From: Myxococcota bacterium
GTDB taxonomy: Bacteria; Myxococcota_A; UBA796; GCA-2862545
Direction: 5' to 3'
Length of the DNA: 44,276 bases
Assembly (NCBI GenBank): GCA_039208735.1
Contig: JBCCQY010000064.1
Span: 1 to 44,276 of the forward strand
Positions within the stretch are counted from its first letter, which is position 1; each line of letters starts with the position of its first letter. The position numbers and the translations under genes are program-made. The notes under the pieces are model-generated. The model was not told where the DNA came from, ran no database searches, and was given only the letters and a program-made list of their open reading frames with translations. Positions 11,448 to 28,237 of the stretch are shown here, in pieces.

Positions 11448-12296
11448 CTACGGGCTGTCTTCCGCGAAGGTTCGTGGGTCCTCGACGCTGTCGGAGTAGA
11501 GGCTGACGGGAAACACCGCCGTGCTGATCTGATACACCCGATTCGGAGATTCCTGGGCGGACGCCGAGAGTGTCTGCACGACGACCTCCTCGAATCGGTT
11601 TTTCAATTCCTGAAAGTCGCTCTCGGAGAGGGCCAGGCTGGCTCCGAGGAAGAGGCGGTCCGAGGGGGGCACCGTGGTCAGCGCTCGCTTCGCGAGTTCC
11701 AGCGATAAAAGGTGGTATTCGGCGATGTCGTTGGATTTCCTGCCGGGCTCGACCTCCCGATCCGTCCCTGCGTCCGGCGCATCGGCCACCAAACGAAAGT
11801 CCGCATCGAGGTAGCCGTACGTCGTCAGGCAACTCAACGCGTGATGGGCCTGGTCGACGGTAATGCGCGGACGCAATGTTGCTGCGACCCAACCGGGATC
11901 AGCTTGGTACTCCTCGCATCGGGCCAATTCAAGGACCGCCCCGATGTGCCAAGCACTCAGCTGTCGCTGGAATTCCGGTCGCGTCACGCTTGCGACCTCC
12001 GGCTTGCGAATGCCGCTCAACAGACGCTGGGCCCGTCCTCGAATGATGGTGGAATTGCCCACCTCGCGTTCCACCAACGAAAGAAACTCCAACCGTTTGC
12101 GTTCACTGAAGTCAAGCGCATCTGCACAGCGCTCGGCGAGTTCTGGGTCAAGTTTGCGGCGGCCGTTGAGAATTTGGCTCAGCCAAGCGGGGGACATCGC
12201 CATTTTTCGCGCGAGTGCGATTTGCTTGATGCCCAGTTCCTTCAGGGCATTTCGTAGATACGCTCGATAGTCGGAGAAATGGGATGTGGCACTCAT
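11448..12296 (-). CDS. TIGR02147 family protein (XRE-type HTH plus DUF4423-like domain)
   Basis: N-terminal FSDYRAYL and HTH (LARKMAMSPAWLSQILNGRRKL). Family motifs WHIGAVLELA, DPGWVAATLRPRIT and RVYQISTAVFPVS. SD GGAGG upstream. Confidence 0.88.
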   Translation of the reverse strand: MSATSHFSDYRAYLRNALKELGIKQIALARKMAMSPAWLSQILNGRRKLDPELAERCADALDFSERKRLEFLSLVEREVGNSTIIRGRAQRLLSGIRKPEVASVTRPEFQRQLSAWHIGAVLELARCEEYQADPGWVAATLRPRITVDQAHHALSCLTTYGYLDADFRLVADAPDAGTDREVEPGRKSNDIAEYHLLSLELAKRALTTVPPSDRLFLGASLALSESDFQELKNRFEEVVVQTLSASAQESPNRVYQISTAVFPVSLYSDSVEDPRTFAEDSP

Positions 12297-13200: not shown

Positions 13201-16200
13201 ATGCTTAAGCACCGGCGAAACCAAGGTCATCTGCAATCCGAAACTCGGGAGGCGGTCAACGCACCGGATCTAGGCTCCACCGCGGGATCCAGCAATGGCG
13301 AGTTCGCGGAATGGGTGGGGCAAGGCGACCTGGAGGACGACGCTCTAGAAAGCGAGCCGTGGTGGGCTCAAAGCGTCGAGGCCGAAACTTCGACGGAAAC
13401 CGTCATTGACGATCCTGCGCCGGAAGTGGACGGCGACCAAGCCTTGACCGAAGTGATTCCCGACCATGGGGGCGATGGGGATGGCGGGGCCGAAGATGAC
13501 GAAACGGGAGGAGCTGGCGATTCTGGAGGGGGCGGGGCACCGGGAGGCGATCCCGTGGAGCCCCCACCGGCGGACCCGGGGGGAGGCGGGGCTCCAGCCC
13601 CGTTGGATCCAGGCGGGGACGGAGGCTCCACCGCAGAGCCCCCACCCATCCCCGTGGGCGCCGCGGTTGCCATGGCCTCGGTCGGGGTGACCTTTCGACC
13701 TGCGGCCTTCGAACCTCCCGCCGTCGCAAGTATGCGGGTCGCGTCCGCGGCGATCCTCACCCGGTTTCTGACGGACAACGCCCTGCAGGTCGAAGCGCTT
13801 GCGGTTCGAGGCGAGGAGGTCGGGGCCCAGATTGACGCGTCGGTACAGATTGCCGCATCGGCCATCGATGCGGCCATCGCCGCCCAAGTGTCGTTGGTTC
13901 GACAAGAGATTGGCAACGCACGAGCCACAACGGAGGAGCAGGCCCAAGGGTTGCGAACTCACATCGCCGCTGAGCAAGAAGGGGCCAAGGTCAATCTGTC
14001 CGCCAATGTCGAGGCCGCTCGGCAGGAGGTCGCCACTGCCTTTGATGCCGCCGTGGTCGTGGTGAACGAAAAGGCGATGGTGCACCGGGGTAAGGTGGAG
14101 GGAAGCTACGCGACGTCTGCCGAGGTGATTCGGGGAATGGGACCCGAATTTGGCGAGAAGGCGACGGCGCTGGGGAGTCGACGGGCCAAGGGGTACCGAG
14201 ACCAGAAGAACGGAGAATCGAACTGGCAGGATGGTCCCATTCATGACAATCGGATGGAAGCCAGCGCGAAAGCGGCGGAACAGGTCGGCAAACAGTATTC
14301 GGAAGGCCTGTCGAAGGAAGGAGAAGGTCAAGCCACCGCCCTTCTTGAAGGCAGGACTCGGGATCACGAACTGGGCGACTCGATTTCCACCCAACTGGAA
14401 GGGATGCTCGACGAGCAGCGAACCACGGCCACCGATACGCTGACGGACTCCGAGGTGGAGGGCCACAAGGCCGTCGACCAAACGTCCACGGCGCTGACCG
14501 GCTCGGTGGATGCCCGCGCGGAGGGGTGCCTGGCGGAGCTTGCGACCTACGAGGCCACGCTGCCGCAACAGGTCGAAGACTACGGCGCTCGCCAGCGCGA
14601 TGCGTTGGTCGGGCAAGCGACGGATGCTCGGGTGGCGATGACGCAGGGGATTGCGGAGGCCGTCACCACGCTCACCGAAGTCCTCGGCCTCGTACAGGCC
14701 AGCTTCAACGGGCACGAAGCGCCCGATCCGCTCACCCTGTCCGCCGATCTCGCGACGGCCCAGGCCGAGCTTGATGCTCAGCTCATCTTGGCCCACGAAC
14801 AGGTGAACACGGGGTTGGCGTCCGCCCTTGAAGCGATCGGGGATGGCGAGTCCACGACGGTGGGACGCATCGAAGAGCTTGCAGACACCAGCACAACCCA
14901 TGCCCAAGGGTTGGGAGAGCGCTTCGAAGAGTGGGCCTCCCAGCTCTTCGAGGGCACGACCAAGACACTGGGCACGGTGGTCGAGGAACACCGGAAGTCC
15001 GTCGAAGCGGTTCGGGACAACGCCAAGACGGGCCTCCTGGATGCGGCCAGTGGTGCGGAGGCGGTGTTTGGCGAGGTGCACGGGCAGCTCGACAGCCAGC
15101 TGGATGCCTCTCAAGGGGCCCTTCGCGAGGGCCTGCAGGGAGCGCTCGACAAGGAAGACAGCGACATCACCGAACATGCCAAACAGGCCGCGGCACAGGT
15201 CCAGCCTCGATGGAAGACGGTGCTCAAGGTCGTGCTGGTCATTGCCGTGTTGGTGGTGGTCGCGTTGGTCGCCGGCCCGCTAGTCATCGGCGCTGTAGGG
15301 AGCTTGGCGACCGCATTGGGGGCGTCTGCGGCCGCCTCGTCGGTGATTGCCGCCGTGGTGGGCGGCGCCATCGTGGGGGCCGGCGCAGGCGCGGTCATTC
15401 AGATGGGCAACAACCTTATCGACGGCAAGTCGCTCTTCGATGGGGTTGTCAAGGCCATGATCGTGGGGGCCATCGGCGGTGCCTTCGGGGGAGCCGGTGC
15501 CGCCTATGCCACCGGCTTTTCGAGTGCGGCGGCCCGCTTCTTCATCGAGCTGGGCATTGATGGCATCGGGGGGGTGGTCGGAGACCTTGTGGTGGGCAAC
15601 CCCATCACGCTGCAGAGCATCCTCATCGGAATGGGGATCGGGGTCGCGATGGGGCAAGCGGTCCGGGTCGCCGGCATTCTAAGGCCGAAGGTCAAGGCGG
15701 ATGCCGACGTTGATCCGAATGTACGGCCCGAGGTCGACCCTCCGGCGGTGCGACCCGAGGGCGAGGTGCCCACGAACACTCGTCACATCGACGAGCCCTC
15801 GGCGCGGACCGATGACGTGGATGCCACCACCGGCCGGGCGATGGCGGATGGTCCGCGAATGGAGGTCGAGGCTCACACCATTCAGGGTCGAACGGAGACA
15901 GTGCGGTTTCGTGACCTGTCGGGCAGGGCCCAAGGCTTGGTCCGTAAGCTCGAGACGGATGGCGCGATCCGCATCGATTCCATCGAGCCTGACGACCTCA
16001 TTGCGATCTCCAAGTTCCTCAATCGCGAAGTCGCGGTGGTGCAGCACGTCGATTCCCAACAAATGCGTGTGGTGGTGGGGACGGGGCGCACGATTCCCGC
16101 ATCGGTGGTCAAGCCGGGTGAGGTCTACATCAGCCACACCCATCCGACGTACACGTCGACCCGAGACCATTTCACGACCGACCTGGCCAATACCCAAGGC

Positions 16201-18684
16201 CAAAAGCACATGGAATCGGTCATCGATTGGAACGGTACCGAGGTGTACTACCGCGATGGCCAGATCTTGAATCCGCGCCATTCCGATGGCTCGTATGCGC
16301 CGATGCCCGAGGGGTTTCGTGCGCCGTGGAAGGGCGATGATGGCAGCATCATTGGCCACAGCCGATTCCGCAACGGGATGCCCGATCACAAGGGCCATCC
16401 CGGGAGTCGAGCTAGCGAAGAAGCTGTGTTGGTCAACGGAAAAGCCATTCCTAAGGATGCGGTCGACGACCTTTCGGCATCGGGAATGCGCGACACGCGG
16501 GATTCTCCGCTCGACGCGGACGACTTTCCCACGCCCGAGCTGGCGTTCAAGGGCGATCCTGCGAGGATGGATGCGGGCCGGATTCGTGGGTTTGCCGACA
16601 CCCAAGCCCAAGGGACTCAGAAGGCGCTGGATCAGATGAACGCCCGCCTCGATGAGGGGACGGATCCCGTCGATGCGGTGCGGCTTCTCGAGCAAGACCT
16701 GCGGGATTGGCGCTATGGCTTGCAGGCAGGAAAGGAGGGGTCACACAAACTCAAGGACCCCATTCCCGCCAACGATCCCAACCGCGATCCCTTCGGAGAT
16801 GCCGCCTACTGGGGCGCCGACATGACGCGGGACCGGGGCCAGCGGCGCGTCATCGGTGAACTCATCGAAAAACGCTTTGCCCATCATTCGGGCGATGGGA
16901 CCACCGATGTCCTGCTGCCCCCCGTGGGCGACAAGCCCGCGACGACGTTCAAGGCTCCCGCGGGTGACGTGATTCAGAACCGGGTTCAGCTGCCCGACGG
17001 TCGCCTGGTCGATGGAAACAAGCTGCTGCGGGGAGATGCGGTTGAAGGCATCCGTCAATTCCGGGCGGACAACGGAAAGAGCTCCTACAACTATTGGGAC
17101 CCGAAACAGCGCTACATCGCCGAGACGGGAGCCCCAAAGGCCCGGGCGGAGATTCACGAGGCGGGCGTCGAGGAGCTAGGGCGCCTGATTCGCATGTCGG
17201 ACTCGATGGCCGACAATCCGTCCGCGATTCTGGAGGCCAAGCACGACTTCGCCAATGCGGCGTATTTGCTGTTTCAATCCCCCATGATCAACCGAGGCAC
17301 AGACGCCACCACCCGCATGATGCTCGTGGCGACCTACAAACGCATTTTCCGTCATGCGCCCAAGCTGCCTCAAGACATCGACATTCAGGCGTATGCACGG
17401 AGTCAGGACGACTTCATTGCCTGGCTGCTGCGGAACATCGAAGCCGACGTGCCGCGTCCTCGTTCGTCGCCGGGGTCGCGCGCCATCACCAACGGAGAGC
17501 CGGGGCTTAGGGCTGCGTTGGGGGATGACGTAGTCGATGCGATGTCGACCCCGGTAAAGAACGCACTGATGTCGCTCGACGATGCGGCGGTTGCCGCTCT
17601 CAAGGGGTCGGACGCGACCCGGCTGGCTCGCATCGGCGAGATGATCCACGCGGGTCACACCGTAGAAGTCGTCTCGGACAAGCTGATTCGTGTCGCCGGC
17701 AACGACATCAAGCTGGTGGACCTCGATCGGATGGCCGAGGTGAGGTTCCGGCACTTCATGGACGGCGGTGAAGTGCCCGTTCCCACCCGGCGACGGTTGG
17801 GGGGACCGGTCAAGAAGAAGGTTGGCGAACACTACGAAGCCCAGAAGGCCAAGGTGGCAGTTCGGGCGCATCGTCAGGTCAAAATCGTGATGTTCGAGGT
17901 TCCGCCGCAAACCCATCCGGACTGGCCGAAGTACCGGGCCTCACAGGCCTCGGCGGAACAGAAGATCAAAGCCTTCGAACAAATGGGGCTGGAGCCCGAG
18001 TTGGTGATCTTGGACCGCGACATCGGCCAAGGCGACTTTGAACGTCAGCTTGATGCGTTCAATGCCAGTGACGACGTTGTGGGCGTCATTGTCCAGCTCC
18101 CAACCCCGGGGCCGCTCAAGGGTTCAGTGGGGCGAATTGCGCCAACCAAGGACCTCGATGCGCTTAGTGCCGATCCAGCCCGACCCCACGCCTACCCCGC
18201 GACCTCCGAAGGCGTGGTGAGGATGGCGATGCCGTTTTTGAACGCGGGCGACACCGTAGCGGTGGTCGGTGGCAAAGGGTTTGTGGGCGAAGGCGTGGTC
18301 AAGATGCTGGAGGCCCAAGGGTTCAACGTCAAGATCTTCGATCAGGGCGATGATCTGAGGGGACTGTTGCAGTGCGATGTCGTACTTTCGGCCGTCGGCA
18401 AGCAGGTCATCGAGCCCCAGCATCTCAAGATCCTGCACAAGATCGTGGTCGACACGGGGTTCGTCCCCGTCAACATCGTCGATGGCAAGTTGCAGGTGAC
18501 GAGCGACATATCGCCAGACGCAGTCGGCATTTCCGAGAACATCACCCCGGTCCCGGGCGGGACGGGCCCGGTCGAGATGGCGGTCTTGATGGAGCGAATG
18601 GCCAAGATGCTGGGCATTGACAACTCGACGTGGAGGGCGTCGGTCAACGATGAGGGCAAATTGGAGGTCACGTTTGACCCATGA
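13201..18684 (+). CDS. Large multi-domain polymorphic-toxin-like protein: acidic/Pro-Gly N-terminus, helical stalk, hydrophobic segment, then JAB-like, AvrB/Fido-like and FolD-like modules
   Basis: Uninterrupted 1827-aa ORF. Hydrophobic Gly/Ala-rich helices at about 15215-15680. E..HTHP..D at 16027-16185. QSPMINRGTDA..DIQAY..QDDF at about 17275-17420. FolD motifs VIVQLP, KDLDA, VVDTG and ITPVPGGTGP at about 17790-18620. Confidence 0.88.
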   Translation: MLKHRRNQGHLQSETREAVNAPDLGSTAGSSNGEFAEWVGQGDLEDDALESEPWWAQSVEAETSTETVIDDPAPEVDGDQALTEVIPDHGGDGDGGAEDDETGGAGDSGGGGAPGGDPVEPPPADPGGGGAPAPLDPGGDGGSTAEPPPIPVGAAVAMASVGVTFRPAAFEPPAVASMRVASAAILTRFLTDNALQVEALAVRGEEVGAQIDASVQIAASAIDAAIAAQVSLVRQEIGNARATTEEQAQGLRTHIAAEQEGAKVNLSANVEAARQEVATAFDAAVVVVNEKAMVHRGKVEGSYATSAEVIRGMGPEFGEKATALGSRRAKGYRDQKNGESNWQDGPIHDNRMEASAKAAEQVGKQYSEGLSKEGEGQATALLEGRTRDHELGDSISTQLEGMLDEQRTTATDTLTDSEVEGHKAVDQTSTALTGSVDARAEGCLAELATYEATLPQQVEDYGARQRDALVGQATDARVAMTQGIAEAVTTLTEVLGLVQASFNGHEAPDPLTLSADLATAQAELDAQLILAHEQVNTGLASALEAIGDGESTTVGRIEELADTSTTHAQGLGERFEEWASQLFEGTTKTLGTVVEEHRKSVEAVRDNAKTGLLDAASGAEAVFGEVHGQLDSQLDASQGALREGLQGALDKEDSDITEHAKQAAAQVQPRWKTVLKVVLVIAVLVVVALVAGPLVIGAVGSLATALGASAAASSVIAAVVGGAIVGAGAGAVIQMGNNLIDGKSLFDGVVKAMIVGAIGGAFGGAGAAYATGFSSAAARFFIELGIDGIGGVVGDLVVGNPITLQSILIGMGIGVAMGQAVRVAGILRPKVKADADVDPNVRPEVDPPAVRPEGEVPTNTRHIDEPSARTDDVDATTGRAMADGPRMEVEAHTIQGRTETVRFRDLSGRAQGLVRKLETDGAIRIDSIEPDDLIAISKFLNREVAVVQHVDSQQMRVVVGTGRTIPASVVKPGEVYISHTHPTYTSTRDHFTTDLANTQGQKHMESVIDWNGTEVYYRDGQILNPRHSDGSYAPMPEGFRAPWKGDDGSIIGHSRFRNGMPDHKGHPGSRASEEAVLVNGKAIPKDAVDDLSASGMRDTRDSPLDADDFPTPELAFKGDPARMDAGRIRGFADTQAQGTQKALDQMNARLDEGTDPVDAVRLLEQDLRDWRYGLQAGKEGSHKLKDPIPANDPNRDPFGDAAYWGADMTRDRGQRRVIGELIEKRFAHHSGDGTTDVLLPPVGDKPATTFKAPAGDVIQNRVQLPDGRLVDGNKLLRGDAVEGIRQFRADNGKSSYNYWDPKQRYIAETGAPKARAEIHEAGVEELGRLIRMSDSMADNPSAILEAKHDFANAAYLLFQSPMINRGTDATTRMMLVATYKRIFRHAPKLPQDIDIQAYARSQDDFIAWLLRNIEADVPRPRSSPGSRAITNGEPGLRAALGDDVVDAMSTPVKNALMSLDDAAVAALKGSDATRLARIGEMIHAGHTVEVVSDKLIRVAGNDIKLVDLDRMAEVRFRHFMDGGEVPVPTRRRLGGPVKKKVGEHYEAQKAKVAVRAHRQVKIVMFEVPPQTHPDWPKYRASQASAEQKIKAFEQMGLEPELVILDRDIGQGDFERQLDAFNASDDVVGVIVQLPTPGPLKGSVGRIAPTKDLDALSADPARPHAYPATSEGVVRMAMPFLNAGDTVAVVGGKGFVGEGVVKMLEAQGFNVKIFDQGDDLRGLLQCDVVLSAVGKQVIEPQHLKILHKIVVDTGFVPVNIVDGKLQVTSDISPDAVGISENITPVPGGTGPVEMAVLMERMAKMLGIDNSTWRASVNDEGKLEVTFDP

Positions 18685-19204
18685 ACGCGCCTTTGAACCC
18701 CTCATTACGGACGAAGTCACCCAATTGCGGGGCGTGGTGGCGTGGTCCCACCGAACCCGGACGGCACGTCGCCCCGATGAGGGCGGGCCCAACCGCAATG
18801 AAGCTCATGCATTGGTGCGATTCTTGTCATGGAACGGTGATGCGCACCGCGTCGCCGTTGTGAGCGAGCTGCAGACGAGCCCGGAGGGGCTCTACGTCAC
18901 CGAGGATCTGCCGGGCGTCATCGAAGCGGCGAAAGATTGGGTCGCCGGTCTGCTTGTCACGCCTCTTGACCGGTTCGTCTGGCTCATTCACCATGGGCCC
19001 TTTTCGGCGATCGGCGCGTTGCAACAGGAAGAGTTCACGGAAATGGGCGTCACGTGGCACGACGGCCGCCCTCAACCCGTCGCAGTCGACGACCGCCACA
19101 GACTCAAGGGAGCCGCCCTTCAAGACCGGTTGCGAGACGCCCCTCTTGAGCCCGTCCTCACCGTGCTTTCGCGGCTGGGAGCGCCGCTGCCGAAGGAATG
19201 GTGA
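18674..19204 (+). CDS. Candidate immunity/partner protein for the upstream toxin-like gene
   Basis: GGAGG at 18663-18667 and TTG start at 18674 overlap the toxin stop (18682-18684). 176-aa soluble protein with VVSEL and VWLIHHGPFS motifs. The function is inferred from position only. Confidence 0.7.
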   Translation: MTHERAFEPLITDEVTQLRGVVAWSHRTRTARRPDEGGPNRNEAHALVRFLSWNGDAHRVAVVSELQTSPEGLYVTEDLPGVIEAAKDWVAGLLVTPLDRFVWLIHHGPFSAIGALQQEEFTEMGVTWHDGRPQPVAVDDRHRLKGAALQDRLRDAPLEPVLTVLSRLGAPLPKEW

Positions 19205-19211
19205 GGGCCCG

Positions 19212-19487
19212 TCAGGTAGCCGAGGCGGAAAGCCAAACAAAGGCCAAGCCACCACGCACAATGCCACCATGGCCCCGGACCAGAGCATGCTGCGCAGGTA
19301 AGGGATGCTCGACGTGGTTGCGCACGGTTCGCTGAAGGCGCGCCCCCGCTGCGTTCACCTCTTGCCCATCACGATTCCCCAGCGTCCAAGGGATGCCCAT
19401 TGCGACGTCGTGGTGAAGCTGCTGTACGAAAATCAAAAGGAAGAGCAGGCCTGCGTTCACCGCTACCGCGACCAGTTCGACCGACAT
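19212..19487 (-). pseudogene. MAPEG family pseudogene with internal deletion and frameshift
   Basis: The N-terminal part (LGNRD..ARLQRTVRNHVE) joins at about 19307, in another frame, to the typical C-terminal helix IPYLRSMLWSG. The middle helices are missing. Confidence 0.7.
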
Positions 19488-19627
19488 GAGACCCTCCGAA
19501 CGAAGACCTCCCGAAGGTAGGCTGCGCCTTGCGTTTCGAGAATGGCCGGTCCGGTGGACACTGCGTGTCGAATCGTGGCCCTACCGCTGGGACGCCGCCC
19601 TGGCTAGGACCGGAGGGCGAGGGAGCC

Positions 19628-19954
19628 ATGGTCAACCCCTACGAATCCACCGAGATTCCACCTTCCGAGGGCCTGGGAAGCTTCATTGGGGGGGGATTGA
19701 TCGGGCTCATCGCATGGGTTCCGATGGTCTTCATCATTGGCCTGATCGGCTATGTGTTCGATCTCGATGGCGGCGACTTTTCGGCCGGCTTTTTCAGCGT
19801 CTTCATTCCGGGCATCATCCAGTTGCCTCTGGTGGCGGTGGTGTGGTGGCGCACCCGAGGTGCCGTGCGGCGAGGTCTCGCGGTAGGAGCCGGCATCGTG
19901 GCCTTCATCAACGCAAGTTGTTGGGGCGTCCTTGTCTTGCCGCAGACGTTTTGA
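19628..19954 (+). CDS. Small membrane protein (3 TM)
   Basis: 108 aa from ATG 19628 (upstream GAGGGAG), three hydrophobic segments, N-terminal NPY motif. Its stop overlaps the next start (TTGA). Confidence 0.75.
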   Translation: MVNPYESTEIPPSEGLGSFIGGGLIGLIAWVPMVFIIGLIGYVFDLDGGDFSAGFFSVFIPGIIQLPLVAVVWWRTRGAVRRGLAVGAGIVAFINASCWGVLVLPQTF

Positions 19955-20676
19955 GCCCGCGATTGGAGCCCCAACTCCACCCCTGGTGGCCGTTTTCAAT
20001 CCACCCGCACTTCATGTTCGAGGCACTTGGCTGGCTTACGGGAGCCCTCGTTGCGTTTGCCCTAAGGCCCAAGGAGGACCCCGCGGGAGGGCCCGTCCAG
20101 CGGCAACAGGTGCTGGTGGGCGCGGTGCTCGGCGGATTGGTTGGAGCCAAGGGGCTCTTCGCGTTGACAGACCCCGCTATCCTCGCAGACCCGACCCAGT
20201 GGCTTGCGGGCAAGAGTGTCGTGGGGGCCTTGCTGGGAGGATGGGTCGGGGTCGAGGTGGCGAAGCAGCAAGCGGGCATCGTATCTCGAACTGGGGATCG
20301 GTTCGTCTGGCCATTGGCCATCGGAATTGCCGTAGGCCGACTCGGTTGCTTCTTTTCCGGCGTGGATGACGGTACGCACGGCATCGTCACCGCGTCCCCC
20401 TTCGGCATGGACCTGGGAGATGGGCAACTCCGTCACCCCACGGCGCTGTACGAGATTCCGGCTGTGGTTGGGCTCGCCGCCCTGGCGCACGCGCGGCCAG
20501 GTCCGCCAGGAGCGGTGTTTCGGCGTTGGCTCGGCGGCTACCTTGCGTGGCGACTTCTCACCGAGCCGTTGAAGACCCAACCGATCGTTGGAGCGGGCCT
20601 GACCACCATTCAATGGGCCTGTGGGTTTGGACTGGCCGCGCTGTTCATCGAGGCGGCTATGCGGAGGGAACGGTGA
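19951..20676 (+). CDS. Prolipoprotein diacylglyceryl transferase (Lgt)-like membrane protein
   Basis: GKSVVGALLGG, GRLGCF, RHPTALYE and RLLTEPLK motifs. It lacks the canonical Lgt signature region, so it is probably a paralogue rather than housekeeping lgt. Start uncertain. Confidence 0.85.
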   Translation: MSPRLEPQLHPWWPFSIHPHFMFEALGWLTGALVAFALRPKEDPAGGPVQRQQVLVGAVLGGLVGAKGLFALTDPAILADPTQWLAGKSVVGALLGGWVGVEVAKQQAGIVSRTGDRFVWPLAIGIAVGRLGCFFSGVDDGTHGIVTASPFGMDLGDGQLRHPTALYEIPAVVGLAALAHARPGPPGAVFRRWLGGYLAWRLLTEPLKTQPIVGAGLTTIQWACGFGLAALFIEAAMRRER

Positions 20677-22079
20677 CGCGAGCTACGAGATCCGGGGTGT
20701 TCTACGACATTGCCCGGGGCGTTTGTCCGACCTGCTACCGCCGTTGCGATGGCGTCATCGAAATCCATGGCAACGACGTTTGGCTGATCCTTCGATGTCC
20801 AGAGCATGGGGAACATCGAGGGCTTCTCGCAGATGACGCCGACTACTGGCGGAATGCTCGGGAACAGTGGCTCAAGCCTCCCGAACTCCCTCACAAGTTT
20901 GCCAGCGAGGTCCGCTGGGGCTGCCCCTGGGATTGCGGGCTTTGCACCGACCATCGACAGCACAGTTGCCTCACCTTGATCGAAATCAACGAAGCGTGCA
21001 ACCTGACGTGTCCAGTGTGCTTTGCGAACTCGGGGACCCATCGGACCACCCATCGTCCCCTCGCCGAGGTGGAAGCCATGTTGGACGCCGCCGTCGCCGC
21101 GGAAGGCGAGCCCGATGTGGTGCAGATTTCAGGCGGCGAGCCAACCCTGCATCCACAGCTCTTCGAGATTTTGGACGCGGCGCGGCAACGACCCATCCGC
21201 CACCTCATGATCAATACGAACAGCCTGCGTATTGCTTCAGAAGAGGGGTTCGCGGAACGCCTGGCGGGCTACATGCCCGGGTTCGAGGTCTACCTGCAGT
21301 GCGACAGCCTGCGGGACGACCGGCTCATGGTGCTTCGAGGGGCGCGCCTCGCCGATGTCCATGAGCGCGCGTTGGAGCGACTGGAGGCGGCCGGGGTCTC
21401 CACGACGCTCGTGGCCACCATCGCCGAAGGCGTCAACGACGATGAGATCGGGGACTTGGTGTCGTACGCGCTGCGGTGGTCGTGTGTGCGCGGGGTGACG
21501 TTGCAGCCGGTCCAGCGCGCAGGAAGGGTTCCTAAGGAGGAGGGAGGGCGCCCCATTCCGCTGACCGGCGTGCGACGACGGTTGCTCGAACAGCACGATC
21601 TGTTTGAGCCCGAAGACGTCGTCCCCGTGCCGTGCCACCCGTCGGCGTTGGCCATGGCTTACGCGCTGCGCACGCCCGATGGCGGGGCCGTACCGCTGAC
21701 CGGGTTGCTCGACCGGGAGCGATTGATCGACGCAGCGGGCAACACGATTGCGTTCGAACGTCTGCCTGAAGCTCGCGAAGCGGTAGCTGGGGCGTTTTCT
21801 GCGGCCCTGTCCCCCGCTTCGCGTGCGGATCGGTTGGGGCGACTGCTCTGTTGCCTTCCCGCGTTGGATGCGCCGGACTTGACCTATCGCGATGTCTTCC
21901 GGGTGTTGATCGTTCGGTTCGCAGATGCCTGGGACCTCGAATTGCGCTCGCTGAAGCAGAGTTGCATCGCGTTTGCGCAACCCGATGGCCGGATGATTCC
22001 CTTCGAGACCTACAACCTCTTCTACCGCCAGGGGCTTACCGATCGATTGGTCCAGGGCCGTGCCGACGCGCGGCGTTGA
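20673..22079 (+). CDS. Radical SAM enzyme of the MJ0619/Tes (COG1964) family
   Basis: N-terminal CPTC..CPEH, CPWDCGLCTDHRQHSC, radical SAM CNLTCPVC, SGGEPT and C-terminal DGRMIPFETYN. GTG start overlaps the upstream stop (GTGA). Confidence 0.9.
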   Translation: MTRATRSGVFYDIARGVCPTCYRRCDGVIEIHGNDVWLILRCPEHGEHRGLLADDADYWRNAREQWLKPPELPHKFASEVRWGCPWDCGLCTDHRQHSCLTLIEINEACNLTCPVCFANSGTHRTTHRPLAEVEAMLDAAVAAEGEPDVVQISGGEPTLHPQLFEILDAARQRPIRHLMINTNSLRIASEEGFAERLAGYMPGFEVYLQCDSLRDDRLMVLRGARLADVHERALERLEAAGVSTTLVATIAEGVNDDEIGDLVSYALRWSCVRGVTLQPVQRAGRVPKEEGGRPIPLTGVRRRLLEQHDLFEPEDVVPVPCHPSALAMAYALRTPDGGAVPLTGLLDRERLIDAAGNTIAFERLPEAREAVAGAFSAALSPASRADRLGRLLCCLPALDAPDLTYRDVFRVLIVRFADAWDLELRSLKQSCIAFAQPDGRMIPFETYNLFYRQGLTDRLVQGRADARR

Positions 22080-25674: not shown

Positions 25675-26199
25675 TTGCTCTGGCTCGCGTTACCCCAAGC
25701 TTTGGCCCAACCCACTGTCCCGCCGTCTCCGCCGGACCGACCCGTCGAGGTGTTTGCTGAGCTCGATGGCATCTGGTCTGGCCAGTTTGTAGGGTATGAC
25801 GCCCAAGGCAAGGAACTCTACCGAATCGATGTGCGCCAGGAGTACACCACCGTCGACGCCCACACCCAGAAGGTCGAGATTCGTGATGCCATGCAGGATG
25901 GCATGGTCATCACGGGCCGAGGGGTGAACGTAGCAAAGCTCGTCGATGGACGGTTGAGTTTGTCGTGCGTTGTCGACAAGTCGAACGGGGACCACGTCGA
26001 GCATCAGGGTCGCATCGTCACACTACCCTCAGGTGAGCCAGGGTTGGTGTGGTCCAGCGTCCGCAAGGGTCGCAGCGAGACCTTCCTGGAGTACGTCACC
26101 GAAGAGAACGGGAAGGCGGTCTATCGGATTCAGGGCACCGGTCGGTATGGAGACACCCTCATCGTCATGAGTGGCCGATACGTCAAGGGCGGCACGTAG
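25675..26199 (+). CDS. Secreted hypothetical beta-strand-rich protein
   Basis: AGGAGG SD with TTG start, signal peptide ending ALA, and a GxW motif followed by alternating beta strands (barrel-like). Confidence 0.78.
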   Translation: MLWLALPQALAQPTVPPSPPDRPVEVFAELDGIWSGQFVGYDAQGKELYRIDVRQEYTTVDAHTQKVEIRDAMQDGMVITGRGVNVAKLVDGRLSLSCVVDKSNGDHVEHQGRIVTLPSGEPGLVWSSVRKGRSETFLEYVTEENGKAVYRIQGTGRYGDTLIVMSGRYVKGGT

Positions 26200-26275
26200 G
26201 TGGCACGCATTCGTCGCTCGCAGATCGATGCGCGAGATTGACAATGTGGTAGCTTTCGCTTCGCTTGGAGGGCGT

Positions 26276-28237
26276 ATGCCGACCGATTTCCGCCACCGAC
26301 GTCTTCTTGCTGCGCAAGGTCTGTTTGCGCTTCACGCCGTCCTTTATGGTTGTGGCTTCTTTTCTTCGTGTTTCGTGCGAGGCACCCGCATCGCGACGCC
26401 CAAGGGGCCTCGGCCTATCGAGGACCTGCAAATCGGTGATGAGGTTCACAGCTGGTCGTTCGAGGCATCGACGGTGGTCACCCGCAAGGTAACGGCCTGT
26501 TTGAACGCGCAAGCGGCGGAGACCCTTCGGGTGGAGGCGGGTGAACTCGTCATCGAAGGGGTGAGCCCCGAGCATCCGTTTTGGGATGTCAAAGGCCAGC
26601 GTTGGGTACGGGCCGACGAACTCCATGAAGGTACCGCGCTGTGGGCCTGGATCGGGGCCGATGCTCGCGAACAGCCCATCACCCGCATCGTGCGTGGCGA
26701 GGGGGCAGAGGTCTTCAACCTCACGGTTGACGGAGAGCACAACTACTTTGCCGAGGGACTGTTGGTTCACAACAAGTCCCCCGTCGACGACACCGACTTC
26801 CGCGACACTGCGACCGTCGCCCCGACCGACACCGATCGCGATGCTCCGGTGTGTTTTCAGCAACGCGCGGTCGACAACGGCCAGGTCTCGGTCACCGAGA
26901 CGGTCCTGGCGTTAAGCGACACGCTCGCCGTGCTGACCGATGAGCCCCCGCCGGCGACTCCTTTGCCGACAGGCTTCGAAAGTGCGCCCTTCTACGGAGC
27001 GGTCGACCCCGCCTCCGCCGAGGCCTGGTGGGAGGGATGGACGGCCATCGATCCTGCGTTCGATGGAGGGTTGCCGGGAGCCCGGTTTCATCCCCTTCAG
27101 GCCGAGATCGGCTCGGGAGTCATCATGGCTTCGGCCCAAAACAACTGCGGCAAGCTCGATCCTGCGTACCAAGACGGGGGAACGGTGCAGGTGTTTGGGC
27201 AGACCTTTCCCGTCTGCATCGTGTCGGAGCGAATCACAAGCGATGTCGCTTGGCCGAACTCCCACGTGTTCTTCGTCACTGAGGCTGTGGTGGTGGGCAC
27301 GGGCGATGCACAGCTCGGGGAGGGTGAGCCCTCGACCAACGTGACGTTGACCATCCAGGCGGGCACCCAGGTCTACTTTGCCCCCGGCGACACGACACTC
27401 GTGGTTTCGCGTGGTTCAAAGCTCAACGCCCGCGGGACGCCGGACCTGCCCATCGTGTTCGCTGGGGTGCCTGGCGATGCACTTGGGATGACCGGCGATC
27501 CCACTGACCTTACGGATCGTTCTGCCTGGGGGGGCCTCATCTTTTCGGCCTACGGCCTTACGAATACGGGTGGGGGAGACGAAATGGAGGCGGAGGATGC
27601 CATTCCTCGCACCGAAGAGCGATGGTTTGGTGGAGACGACAACGACGACGATAGCGGCATCCTCCGGTATGCCATCATCGCCGAGGCGGGCTTCGAGTCT
27701 GGCTCTGGCGAGGAGTATGACGGACTACGTCTTGAGGCGGTGGGGTCGCGCACCCAGATCGACCACGTCCAGATCATTGGTTCTGGAGACGACGGCATCG
27801 AGTGGCACGGCGGGGCGGTGAATCTGTCCCACGTCATCTGCAACGGAGCCTCGGACGACAGTCTGGACCAAGACCTTGGCTACGTGGGGTTGGTGCAGTT
27901 CGCTCTGGTGATCTTTGGCAGTGAGAGCGGCGATCGAGGGATTGAGTCCGACAACAACGGCGCCAACTTCGATGCCGCACCTCAAACCGCCCCAGTGCTG
28001 GCCAATCTCACCATCATCGGGGATGTGGGTGGCGATTTTGAATCGGTGGGCGCTTTGCACCGCGAAGGCTGGCGGGGTCAGGTTCTTCGGTCGGTCTTCA
28101 TGGACGGAGACAACGGGATTGGAGGTCCCTTCGAAGACGGCTGTCTCGACATCGATGACACGCTTCCTTCGGAGCTAGTGTACCGCGACGTGCTCTTCGA
28201 CTGTGCGTCGCCTCTGGTAGAGTGCGACGACGACTGA
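26276..28237 (+). CDS. Lipoprotein with N-terminal Hint (bacterial intein-like) domain and C-terminal beta-helix-like passenger
   Basis: GGAGG plus ATG 26276 and lipobox LYGC. Hint runs CFVRGTRI..SPEHPF..VFNLTV..HNYFA..LVHN. The passenger has GGDDNDDDSGILRY, DDGIEWHGG and GIESDN motifs. Confidence 0.87.
   Translation: MPTDFRHRRLLAAQGLFALHAVLYGCGFFSSCFVRGTRIATPKGPRPIEDLQIGDEVHSWSFEASTVVTRKVTACLNAQAAETLRVEAGELVIEGVSPEHPFWDVKGQRWVRADELHEGTALWAWIGADAREQPITRIVRGEGAEVFNLTVDGEHNYFAEGLLVHNKSPVDDTDFRDTATVAPTDTDRDAPVCFQQRAVDNGQVSVTETVLALSDTLAVLTDEPPPATPLPTGFESAPFYGAVDPASAEAWWEGWTAIDPAFDGGLPGARFHPLQAEIGSGVIMASAQNNCGKLDPAYQDGGTVQVFGQTFPVCIVSERITSDVAWPNSHVFFVTEAVVVGTGDAQLGEGEPSTNVTLTIQAGTQVYFAPGDTTLVVSRGSKLNARGTPDLPIVFAGVPGDALGMTGDPTDLTDRSAWGGLIFSAYGLTNTGGGDEMEAEDAIPRTEERWFGGDDNDDDSGILRYAIIAEAGFESGSGEEYDGLRLEAVGSRTQIDHVQIIGSGDDGIEWHGGAVNLSHVICNGASDDSLDQDLGYVGLVQFALVIFGSESGDRGIESDNNGANFDAAPQTAPVLANLTIIGDVGGDFESVGALHREGWRGQVLRSVFMDGDNGIGGPFEDGCLDIDDTLPSELVYRDVLFDCASPLVECDDD
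26369..26773 (+). other. Hint/BIL autoprocessing domain (135 aa, no endonuclease)
   Basis: Cys1 at 26369, block B SxxH, terminal His-Asn at 26768-26773. The +1 residue is Lys. Confidence 0.88.

Follow-up and report, generated by a model that had tools for sequence, protein, structure and literature searches.

The known interbacterial toxins are directed at walls, membranes, nucleic acids, nicotinamide adenine dinucleotide (NAD), ATP and translation, and our literature searches found no report of a toxin built from a one-carbon enzyme. Here we describe the C-terminal, FolD-derived domain of P0001, a multidomain protein of polymorphic-toxin type encoded on contig JBCCQY010000064.1 of a Myxococcota bacterium (assembly GCA_039208735.1), together with the small partner gene that overlaps its stop codon. 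The whole stretch of 44,276 nucleotides that was analysed is called the window below. From the comparisons presented here, the FolD-derived domain is very probably a new polymorphic-toxin domain.

The key substrate residues of FolD are Tyr52, Lys56, Gln100, Leu101, Asp125, Gly273 and Gly276; Tyr stacks on the para-aminobenzoate (pABA) group, Asp binds the pterin head, and the NADP 2'-phosphate site is formed by Arg, His and Ser (PMC3368264, in the parts covered here). Among the surveys of toxins and their delivery, the first 300,000 of the 357,715 characters of Zhang 2012 (PMC3482391) contain 'folate' and 'cyclohydrolase' 0 times, and the searched files of the Geller 2021 supplement tables (PMC8213781), as far as these were covered, give a THF_DHG_CYH count of 0 in loci of extracellular contractile injection systems (eCIS). 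No FolD-type domain stands among the examined rows of the Danov 2024 supplement (PMC11297309), and the main texts of the Nachmias preprint and Iyer 2017, whose supplements could list the domain, have no 'folate'. Searches that combined the vocabulary of folate enzymes with that of toxins, DUF4157, Rhs, immunity or conjugation found no description, with subscription papers mostly outside their coverage; the initial annotation, made from the letters of the DNA, had likewise known of no described FolD-type toxin domain.

The FolD-derived domain and its carriers

All FolD motifs quoted in the initial annotation were found in frame and without a stop (Table 1), and its account of the residues was accurate: Ser replaces Tyr, the loop reads GGKGFVG, SDI stands for GDV, and Lys, Gln and Asp are retained. 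SDI is peculiar to the window copy, G being present in 95% of its clade. The FolD fold claimed for the region was recovered, with a start slightly upstream of the proposed 17790, as the profile match runs from residue 1524 (nucleotide ~17770). The domain passes PF00763 (38.7 bits vs a cut-off of 32.8) and PF02882 (49.8 vs 27), and its AlphaFold2 model, made from an alignment of 110 relatives, has a pLDDT (predicted local distance difference test) of 96.7. The top Foldseek matches of the model are exclusively FolD/MTHFD (template modelling score ~0.75), and VIA-align places FolD at Z 25.7 vs Z 14.4 for the next family. The landmarks are S1584, K1588, Q1632, D1653, A1667, GGKGFVG at 1690-1696, D1714 and E1792.

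An ordinary FolD joined to the carrier by read-through or mis-assembly is scarcely credible and is already contradicted. Pfam and the automated names do say FolD, and an ATG at 17758, with GAGG 12 nucleotides upstream, is a potential extra start; the fused form, as read from the DNA, exists irrespective of any additional translation from that ATG. The entire stretch is found with zero differences on a contig of run X1, from which this DNA may itself derive. In two other studies, contigs reach across the 5' domain junction (X2, 17654-17931; X3, 17634-17956), which makes mis-assembly, and with it the assembly artefact considered in the initial annotation, unlikely. Many independent fusions also exist among the relatives. 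The domain scores 44-72 bits on the NCBIfam FolD equivalogs, far short of cut-offs of 333-515 (25 rows listed).

A separate canonical folD is present in the same genome, on contig C40, where it is truncated by the end of the locus; it has YxxxK, KDVDG, PCTP and GRSNLVG, shares 31% identity (66/213) with the FolD-derived domain, and is flanked by what we take to be glycine-cleavage-like genes. In a quick IQ-TREE analysis, a branch of ~2.35 (SH-aLRT, Shimodaira-Hasegawa-like approximate likelihood ratio test, 100) set 86 relatives apart from 20 canonical rows, and the split recurred (SH-like support 100) in a FastTree analysis with 54 canonical rows, of which viral contigs supplied 41. The canonical rows represent one phylum and viral contigs, the archaeal and yeast solved-structure sequences being left out, and three viral rows of the FastTree tree had been trimmed at an incorrect PGG. 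The nesting among housekeeping FolD proteins that the initial annotation had allowed for was not seen in these trees, where the domain lies in a distinct clade; its closest relatives are DUF4157 fusions, with which it groups in the IQ-TREE tree (15 rows, support 100). Short members on deep branches, P0185, P0191, P0203 and P0231 among them, are singletons. The clade profile gives 375.9 bits on the window gene and at best 143.6 among 300 other genomes of the phylum; since 0 of these 300 carry a member, the clade is sporadic in the phylum. The best 80 of 441 viral-contig loci are at canonical level (identity <=31%, profile score <=133.9) and include no clade member. Four metagenome-assembled genome records labelled Chloroflexia, Planctomycetota, Deltaproteobacteria and Acetobacteraceae (L022, L051, L052, L082) have copies that look actinobacterial or Nostoc-like; they were not tallied as extra phyla because mis-binning or recent transfer is possible.

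Twenty of the 22 longer relatives are clade members, and 14 carry DUF4157 (eCIS core). The domain directly follows the DPLGL core end in the single Rhs relative among them, and one longer relative additionally bears a Scabin-like ADP-ribosyltransferase (ART) domain. WXG100_2 N-termini were found on the clade members P0148, P0187 and L065, the last of which combines the FolD-like domain with ART and Gln-amidase toxin domains. The recurrence at C-termini of other secreted-type proteins, on which the initial annotation had set weight, is therefore seen with DUF4157/eCIS, Rhs and WXG100 carriers. As a separate arrangement, the FolD-like member of P0195 lies N-terminal to a PAAR-Rhs protein with its own C-terminal tip.

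The carrier region of P0001 (residues 165-830) matches 48 other proteins, 29 of them with DUF4157 (PF13699). Their C-termini are Ntox1, PT-HINT, EndoU, AHH, RelA/SpoT or unnamed domains, and the FolD-like domain was found in 0 of the 48; carriers that share this region and end differently indicate that the C-terminus is swappable. The closest carrier, P0269 (labelled Myxococcales), matches residues 40-1091 at 52% and then continues into a different C-terminal domain. We conclude that the FolD-derived domain is a new domain family within a known kind of system. The proposal that a housekeeping enzyme became an effector in the toxin position is borne out as far as comparison reaches, by the genome's own folD, the clade, the carriers, the swapping and the partner gene.

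The partner gene and the mobile standalone forms

The partner gene starts at a TTG located 5 nucleotides after GGAGGT (18663-18668). Its product belongs to an unnamed family of ~155 residues with conserved S-E and W-x-x-H-x-G-x-F-S motifs, in which W, H, F and S are invariant. In 64 of 80 GTDB loci a homologue lies no more than ~1.3 kb from the FolD-like gene, in agreement with the association that the initial annotation had envisaged. The partner lies upstream in 55 loci, which have standalone forms, and downstream in 9, corresponding to 9 of the 11 long fused forms. The pair also occurs in Desulfococcus and Microscilla, and on an Acaryochloris plasmid, where the partner scores 89 bits.

The reverse search, with 14 of 62 partner sequences as the query, is skewed to actinobacteria because these were the closer sequences. 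Across 16 metagenome partner loci, the FolD-like neighbour is intact in 8, a scored fragment in 1 and a remnant recognised by eye in 1. The partner is retained beside decayed FolD-like remnants at L125:1698-2195 and L137:4396-4839, and its presence beside toxin fragments and remnants fits an immunity gene kept after toxin decay.

The window copy of the partner matches no Pfam family, and the commonest Pfam match in its family is TruB_C (8 of 62 members); its ESM Atlas matches are unnamed or low-count. The partner model (pLDDT 89) has no PDB match above Z 5.7, the value of the best one, the RnlB antitoxin (6Y2P chain D), which is below the tool's meaningful level. The 176-residue product is probably the immunity protein of a FolD-derived toxin, and it appears highly likely that the two genes form a toxin-immunity pair. 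The Lgt and radical-SAM genes downstream were considered as partners and rejected, as they clustered with no open reading frame (ORF) in the 80 loci.

The cyanobacterial plasmid-type copies (L068-L070, L072-L082, L219, L221) have an unrelated upstream ORF of 76-80 residues and usually a glycosyltransferase family 2 (GT2) gene downstream; this ORF is possibly a second immunity family. The Acaryochloris locus (L218) has the GT2 gene plus the usual partner.

Most GTDB copies are standalone genes of 300-550 residues with low-complexity C-terminal tails, many of which end in DRGMEL- or GGGHTR-like sequences that, in our estimation, resemble conjugative transfer signals. A VirD4/TraG gene is near 32 of the 80 loci, 14 of 15 plasmid records are conjugative or mobilizable, a GT2 gene is found in 14 loci, and an amidase-signature gene accompanies 37, including the fusions of type VII secretion system (T7SS) kind, L060 and L065. 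The family amidase keeps an intact GGSSAGS/GSDGAGS signature; in L124:4168-6714 it shares one frame with the FolD-like domain (a single case, in which a stop may have been lost). The best amidases of the window's genome reach <=171 bits vs >420 for full-length family members, and as the genome has no close member of this subfamily we regard the amidase as accessory.

These standalone copies, their conjugative setting and the conserved accessory enzymes would suit a non-toxic cargo, such as a small pathway or recipient-conditioning factor of conjugative elements that toxin carriers took up as a passenger. We consider this improbable: the domain was taken up repeatedly, in the toxin position, by carriers that are not related to one another (eCIS, Rhs, WXG100), the partner shifts downstream in 9 of the 11 long fused forms, and orphan partners adjoin decayed copies. 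The standalone forms point towards toxin-immunity pairs on conjugative elements.

Active site and proposed mechanism

Residues were counted in 235 clade and 30 canonical sequences. The clade keeps Lys and Asp in 235/235 and Gln in 232/235, as well as the PGGxGP loop that belongs to the folate pocket. The Tyr position of YxxxK is Ser in 235/235 clade vs Tyr in 29/30 canonical sequences, the Cys of PCT is Ala in 230/235, and the position equivalent to Thr279 is Glu (190) or Gln (25) in the clade vs Thr in 29/30 canonical sequences; W1811 is a new clade position, conserved at 95%. In the parts covered of two papers, this Thr touches the cofactor (PMC6443876, PMC11647893). The Arg of the NADP site has changed to Ala, Gly or Ser, and Asp or Glu ends the second Rossmann strand in 232/235. 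Weak extra matches of the clade profile, to S-adenosylhomocysteine hydrolases and epimerase-type enzymes, cover the rebuilt GxxGxxG loop. Use of NAD rather than NADP is suggested, because the Arg/His/Ser 2'-phosphate site gave way to GxxGxxG and an acidic residue.

A Tyr-to-Ala change left the dehydrogenase and cyclohydrolase activities of silkworm MTHFD not measurable (PMC6443876, in the part covered), and the clade has Ser throughout; the canonical reaction is therefore doubtful. This weakens the drain of 5,10-methylene-tetrahydrofolate (THF) by the normal reaction, which the initial annotation had offered as an example of the activity, and leads us to prefer an off-pathway reaction, linked to NAD+, that would convert a reduced folate or pterin. 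Some altered reaction on folate or pterin is likelier than the canonical reaction, and, if the two genes are a toxin-immunity pair, chemistry directed at folate is likely. The reading that we prefer, on chances a little better than even, is a toxin with NAD+-dependent diversion of reduced folates, from which the adjoining 176-residue protein would protect the producer.

By this mechanism P0001 would be loaded into one of the genome's eCIS particles and delivered into rival cells, where the retained Lys, Gln and Asp would bind the pterin ring edge and the domain would use NAD, not NADP. An off-pathway or uncoupled oxidation, with Tyr lost and Thr changed to Glu beside the nicotinamide, would convert reduced folates to a dead-end form and starve the synthesis of thymidylate, purines and formylmethionine, and the partner would neutralise the domain through direct binding. 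The acidic N-terminus is a possible candidate for the eCIS loading signal.

Several observations speak against this reading. The 64 partner-bearing loci are mostly from Streptomyces and hence not independent, and the partner is missing from 16 of the 80 loci, namely 14 near-identical cyanobacterial-type copies and the DUF4157 fusions L004 and L005; according to the covered part of Zhang 2012 (PMC3482391), many toxins delivered by Photorhabdus virulence cassettes (PVC) have no adjoining immunity genes. In the reverse search, a FolD-like gene is missing from 5 of the 16 partner loci, and 1 locus is truncated where its contig ends. The mostly standalone occurrence on conjugative elements, often with amidase or GT2, could mean a small pathway. 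DUF4157 is absent from the P0001 frame and from the other scanned window ORFs, none of which is an eCIS gene; the 3 Pvc16 and 6 DUF4157 matches of the genome are on contigs other than that of the window, so that eCIS delivery of P0001 is something we infer. The placement of D1714 on the His/Ser phosphate site comes from HMMER alignments, and MAFFT placed this residue differently. Finally, Tyr loss inactivates silkworm MTHFD, so the substrate may have left folate.

The Pvc16 and DUF4157 matches lie on G000 contigs C63, C55, C12, C27 and C143 (L083-L091), two of them in open frames of ~1800 residues, and point to candidates for further eCIS effectors.

The chief alternative to a folate target is a toxin directed at NAD or at a different amino-oxo-pyrimidine substrate. 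Such an enzyme, with its immunity partner, would use the new Glu near the nicotinamide to break down or alter NAD(P); other possible targets are a guanine-like base or a macromolecular amine, for example by one-carbon or ADP-ribose transfer, with the amidase reversing the modification. The invariable loss of the pABA-stacking Tyr and the Glu/Gln beside the nicotinamide agree with it, as does the amidase that travels with the pair (in frame in L124). The pterin edge read by Asp also resembles the guanine edge. Set against this are the conserved Lys, Gln, Asp and PGGxGP loop of the folate pocket, the Gln, a poor catalytic acid, at the new position in 25/235, the lack of an adjoining family amidase at the window gene, and one member, the deep-branching P0231, that forms a single protein with an FchA-like cyclohydrolase, itself a folate enzyme (109 bits, short of the cut-off of 275). 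On balance we find an off-folate target unlikely.

A pseudoenzyme would sequester folate or poison the FolD dimer of the target cell without catalysis. FolD is a stable homodimer held through a Rossmann strand (PMC3368264, in the parts covered), and the clade has neither the Tyr nor the Cys of PCT and shows a remodelled strand at the cofactor site; all of this would suit a pseudoenzyme. The retained Lys and Asp, the nearly invariant Gln and the fixed new Ser, Glu/Gln and W1811 fit selection on catalysis instead, and we regard a pseudoenzyme as very improbable.

Returning to the diversion of reduced folates by the FolD-derived toxin, we tentatively suggest, as a broader and rather less probable proposal, an undescribed, widespread toxin-immunity family in which FolD has been rebuilt into an "enzymatic antifolate" that depends on NAD and destroys folate. 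Carriers of eCIS, Rhs and T7SS kind would deliver it, as would conjugative elements through the C-terminal tails, and only recipients gaining the partner, with the detoxifying amidase or glycosyltransferase, would survive. If folate is corrupted, this would be a protein antifolate, a housekeeping enzyme weaponised via a few fixed substitutions. It would also account for many "FolD" annotations on plasmids, integrative and conjugative elements and toxin proteins, and would give a function to the unnamed partner family.

Other features of the window and comparison with known systems

The start codon of the P0001 frame is preceded by GGAG at 4 nucleotides, and the GC content at third codon positions is 0.64-0.81 in all bins along the frame. 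Upstream of the FolD-derived domain, an HxH-motif domain is JAB/deaminase-like by motif only and had no match in the Pfam search. It is followed by an AvrB/AvrC-like Fido domain, with ESM Atlas feature matches of 0.94-0.95 to clusters that contain PF05394 in 28-50% of members and no match in the Pfam hidden Markov model search; it is a candidate second toxin domain within P0001, and none of the adjoining genes is an obvious antidote for it. With the HxH and AvrB/Fido-like domains in addition to the FolD-like one, P0001 appears as a multi-warhead carrier. MopE repeats and FHA/kinase genes are also present in the window and, with the TIGR02147 family protein, would suit a host of myxobacterial type.

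Table 1. Positions of the P0001 frame, its parts and nearby genes in the window
Feature	Position	Strand	Basis or remark
TIGR02147 family helix-turn-helix protein	11448..12296		
P0001, multidomain polymorphic-toxin-type protein, 1827 aa	13201..18684	+	open frame without internal stop
N-terminus, acidic and Gly/Pro-rich, aa 1-164	13201..13692	+	from sequence
Carrier, helical and hydrophobic, aa 165-830	13693..15690	+	common to 48 other proteins
HxH-motif domain, ISHTHP at 16129	15853..16425	+	also in closest carrier P0269 (labelled Myxococcales)
AvrB/AvrC-like Fido domain (candidate), QSPMINRGTDATTR at 17275	16588..17490, bounds approximate	+	ESM Atlas feature search
FolD-derived domain, aa ~1524-1827	17770..18684	+	Pfam, profile match, model, structural matches
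ASQASAEQKIKAF	17938-17976	+	in-frame FolD motif
FNASDDVVGVIVQLP, Gln at 18094	18058-18102	+	in-frame FolD motif
TKDLDAL, second Asp at 18157	18145-18165	+	in-frame FolD motif
PATSEGV	18196-18216	+	in-frame FolD motif
VAVVGGKGFVG	18256-18288	+	in-frame FolD motif
VVDTG	18445-18459	+	in-frame FolD motif
ITPVPGGTGP	18541-18570	+	in-frame FolD motif
Partner gene, 176 aa, candidate immunity protein	18674..19204	+	TTG start, overlaps toxin stop
Lgt-like gene and radical SAM gene with HMPTM (pterin methyltransferase-type) zinc ribbon	19486-22079		not seen in the 80 related loci
688-aa protein, N-terminal Hint domain, then unannotated acidic region	26171-28237		PT-HINT 39.3 bits

We know of no toxin context for the yeast NAD-dependent methylene-THF dehydrogenase. 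This enzyme (PDB 1EE9) has the same fold as the FolD-derived domain (Z 23.2) and is a precedent for an NAD-using member; it differs in being housekeeping, at 20% identity, and its sequence lies outside the trees. The RnlB antitoxin is a lead only for the partner model, with 107 aligned residues, a root-mean-square deviation (rmsd) of 3.6 and 10% identity at its Z of 5.7.

The closest described enzymes are FolD/MTHFD (PF00763 and PF02882; PDB 1B0A, 1A4I, 2C2X), which have the same two-domain fold (263 residues aligned at Z 25.7, rmsd 3.2). Like them, the window domain has Lys, Gln, Leu, Asp and both PGGxG glycines, thus 6 of the 7 key substrate residues (PMC3368264). Unlike them, it has Ser for Tyr, Ala for Cys, Glu for Thr and a replaced NADP 2'-phosphate site, and it belongs to a clade of its own, sits on a toxin carrier with a small partner gene and is sporadic. 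Compared with DUF4157 effectors, the P0001 frame has no DUF4157 itself; as in the eCIS/PVC DUF4157 proteins and polymorphic toxins (PMC3482391, PMC8213781, PMC11297309), the carrier is conserved and the C-termini are variable, and P0001 shares with these toxins the tandem toxin-like domains and the small downstream gene.

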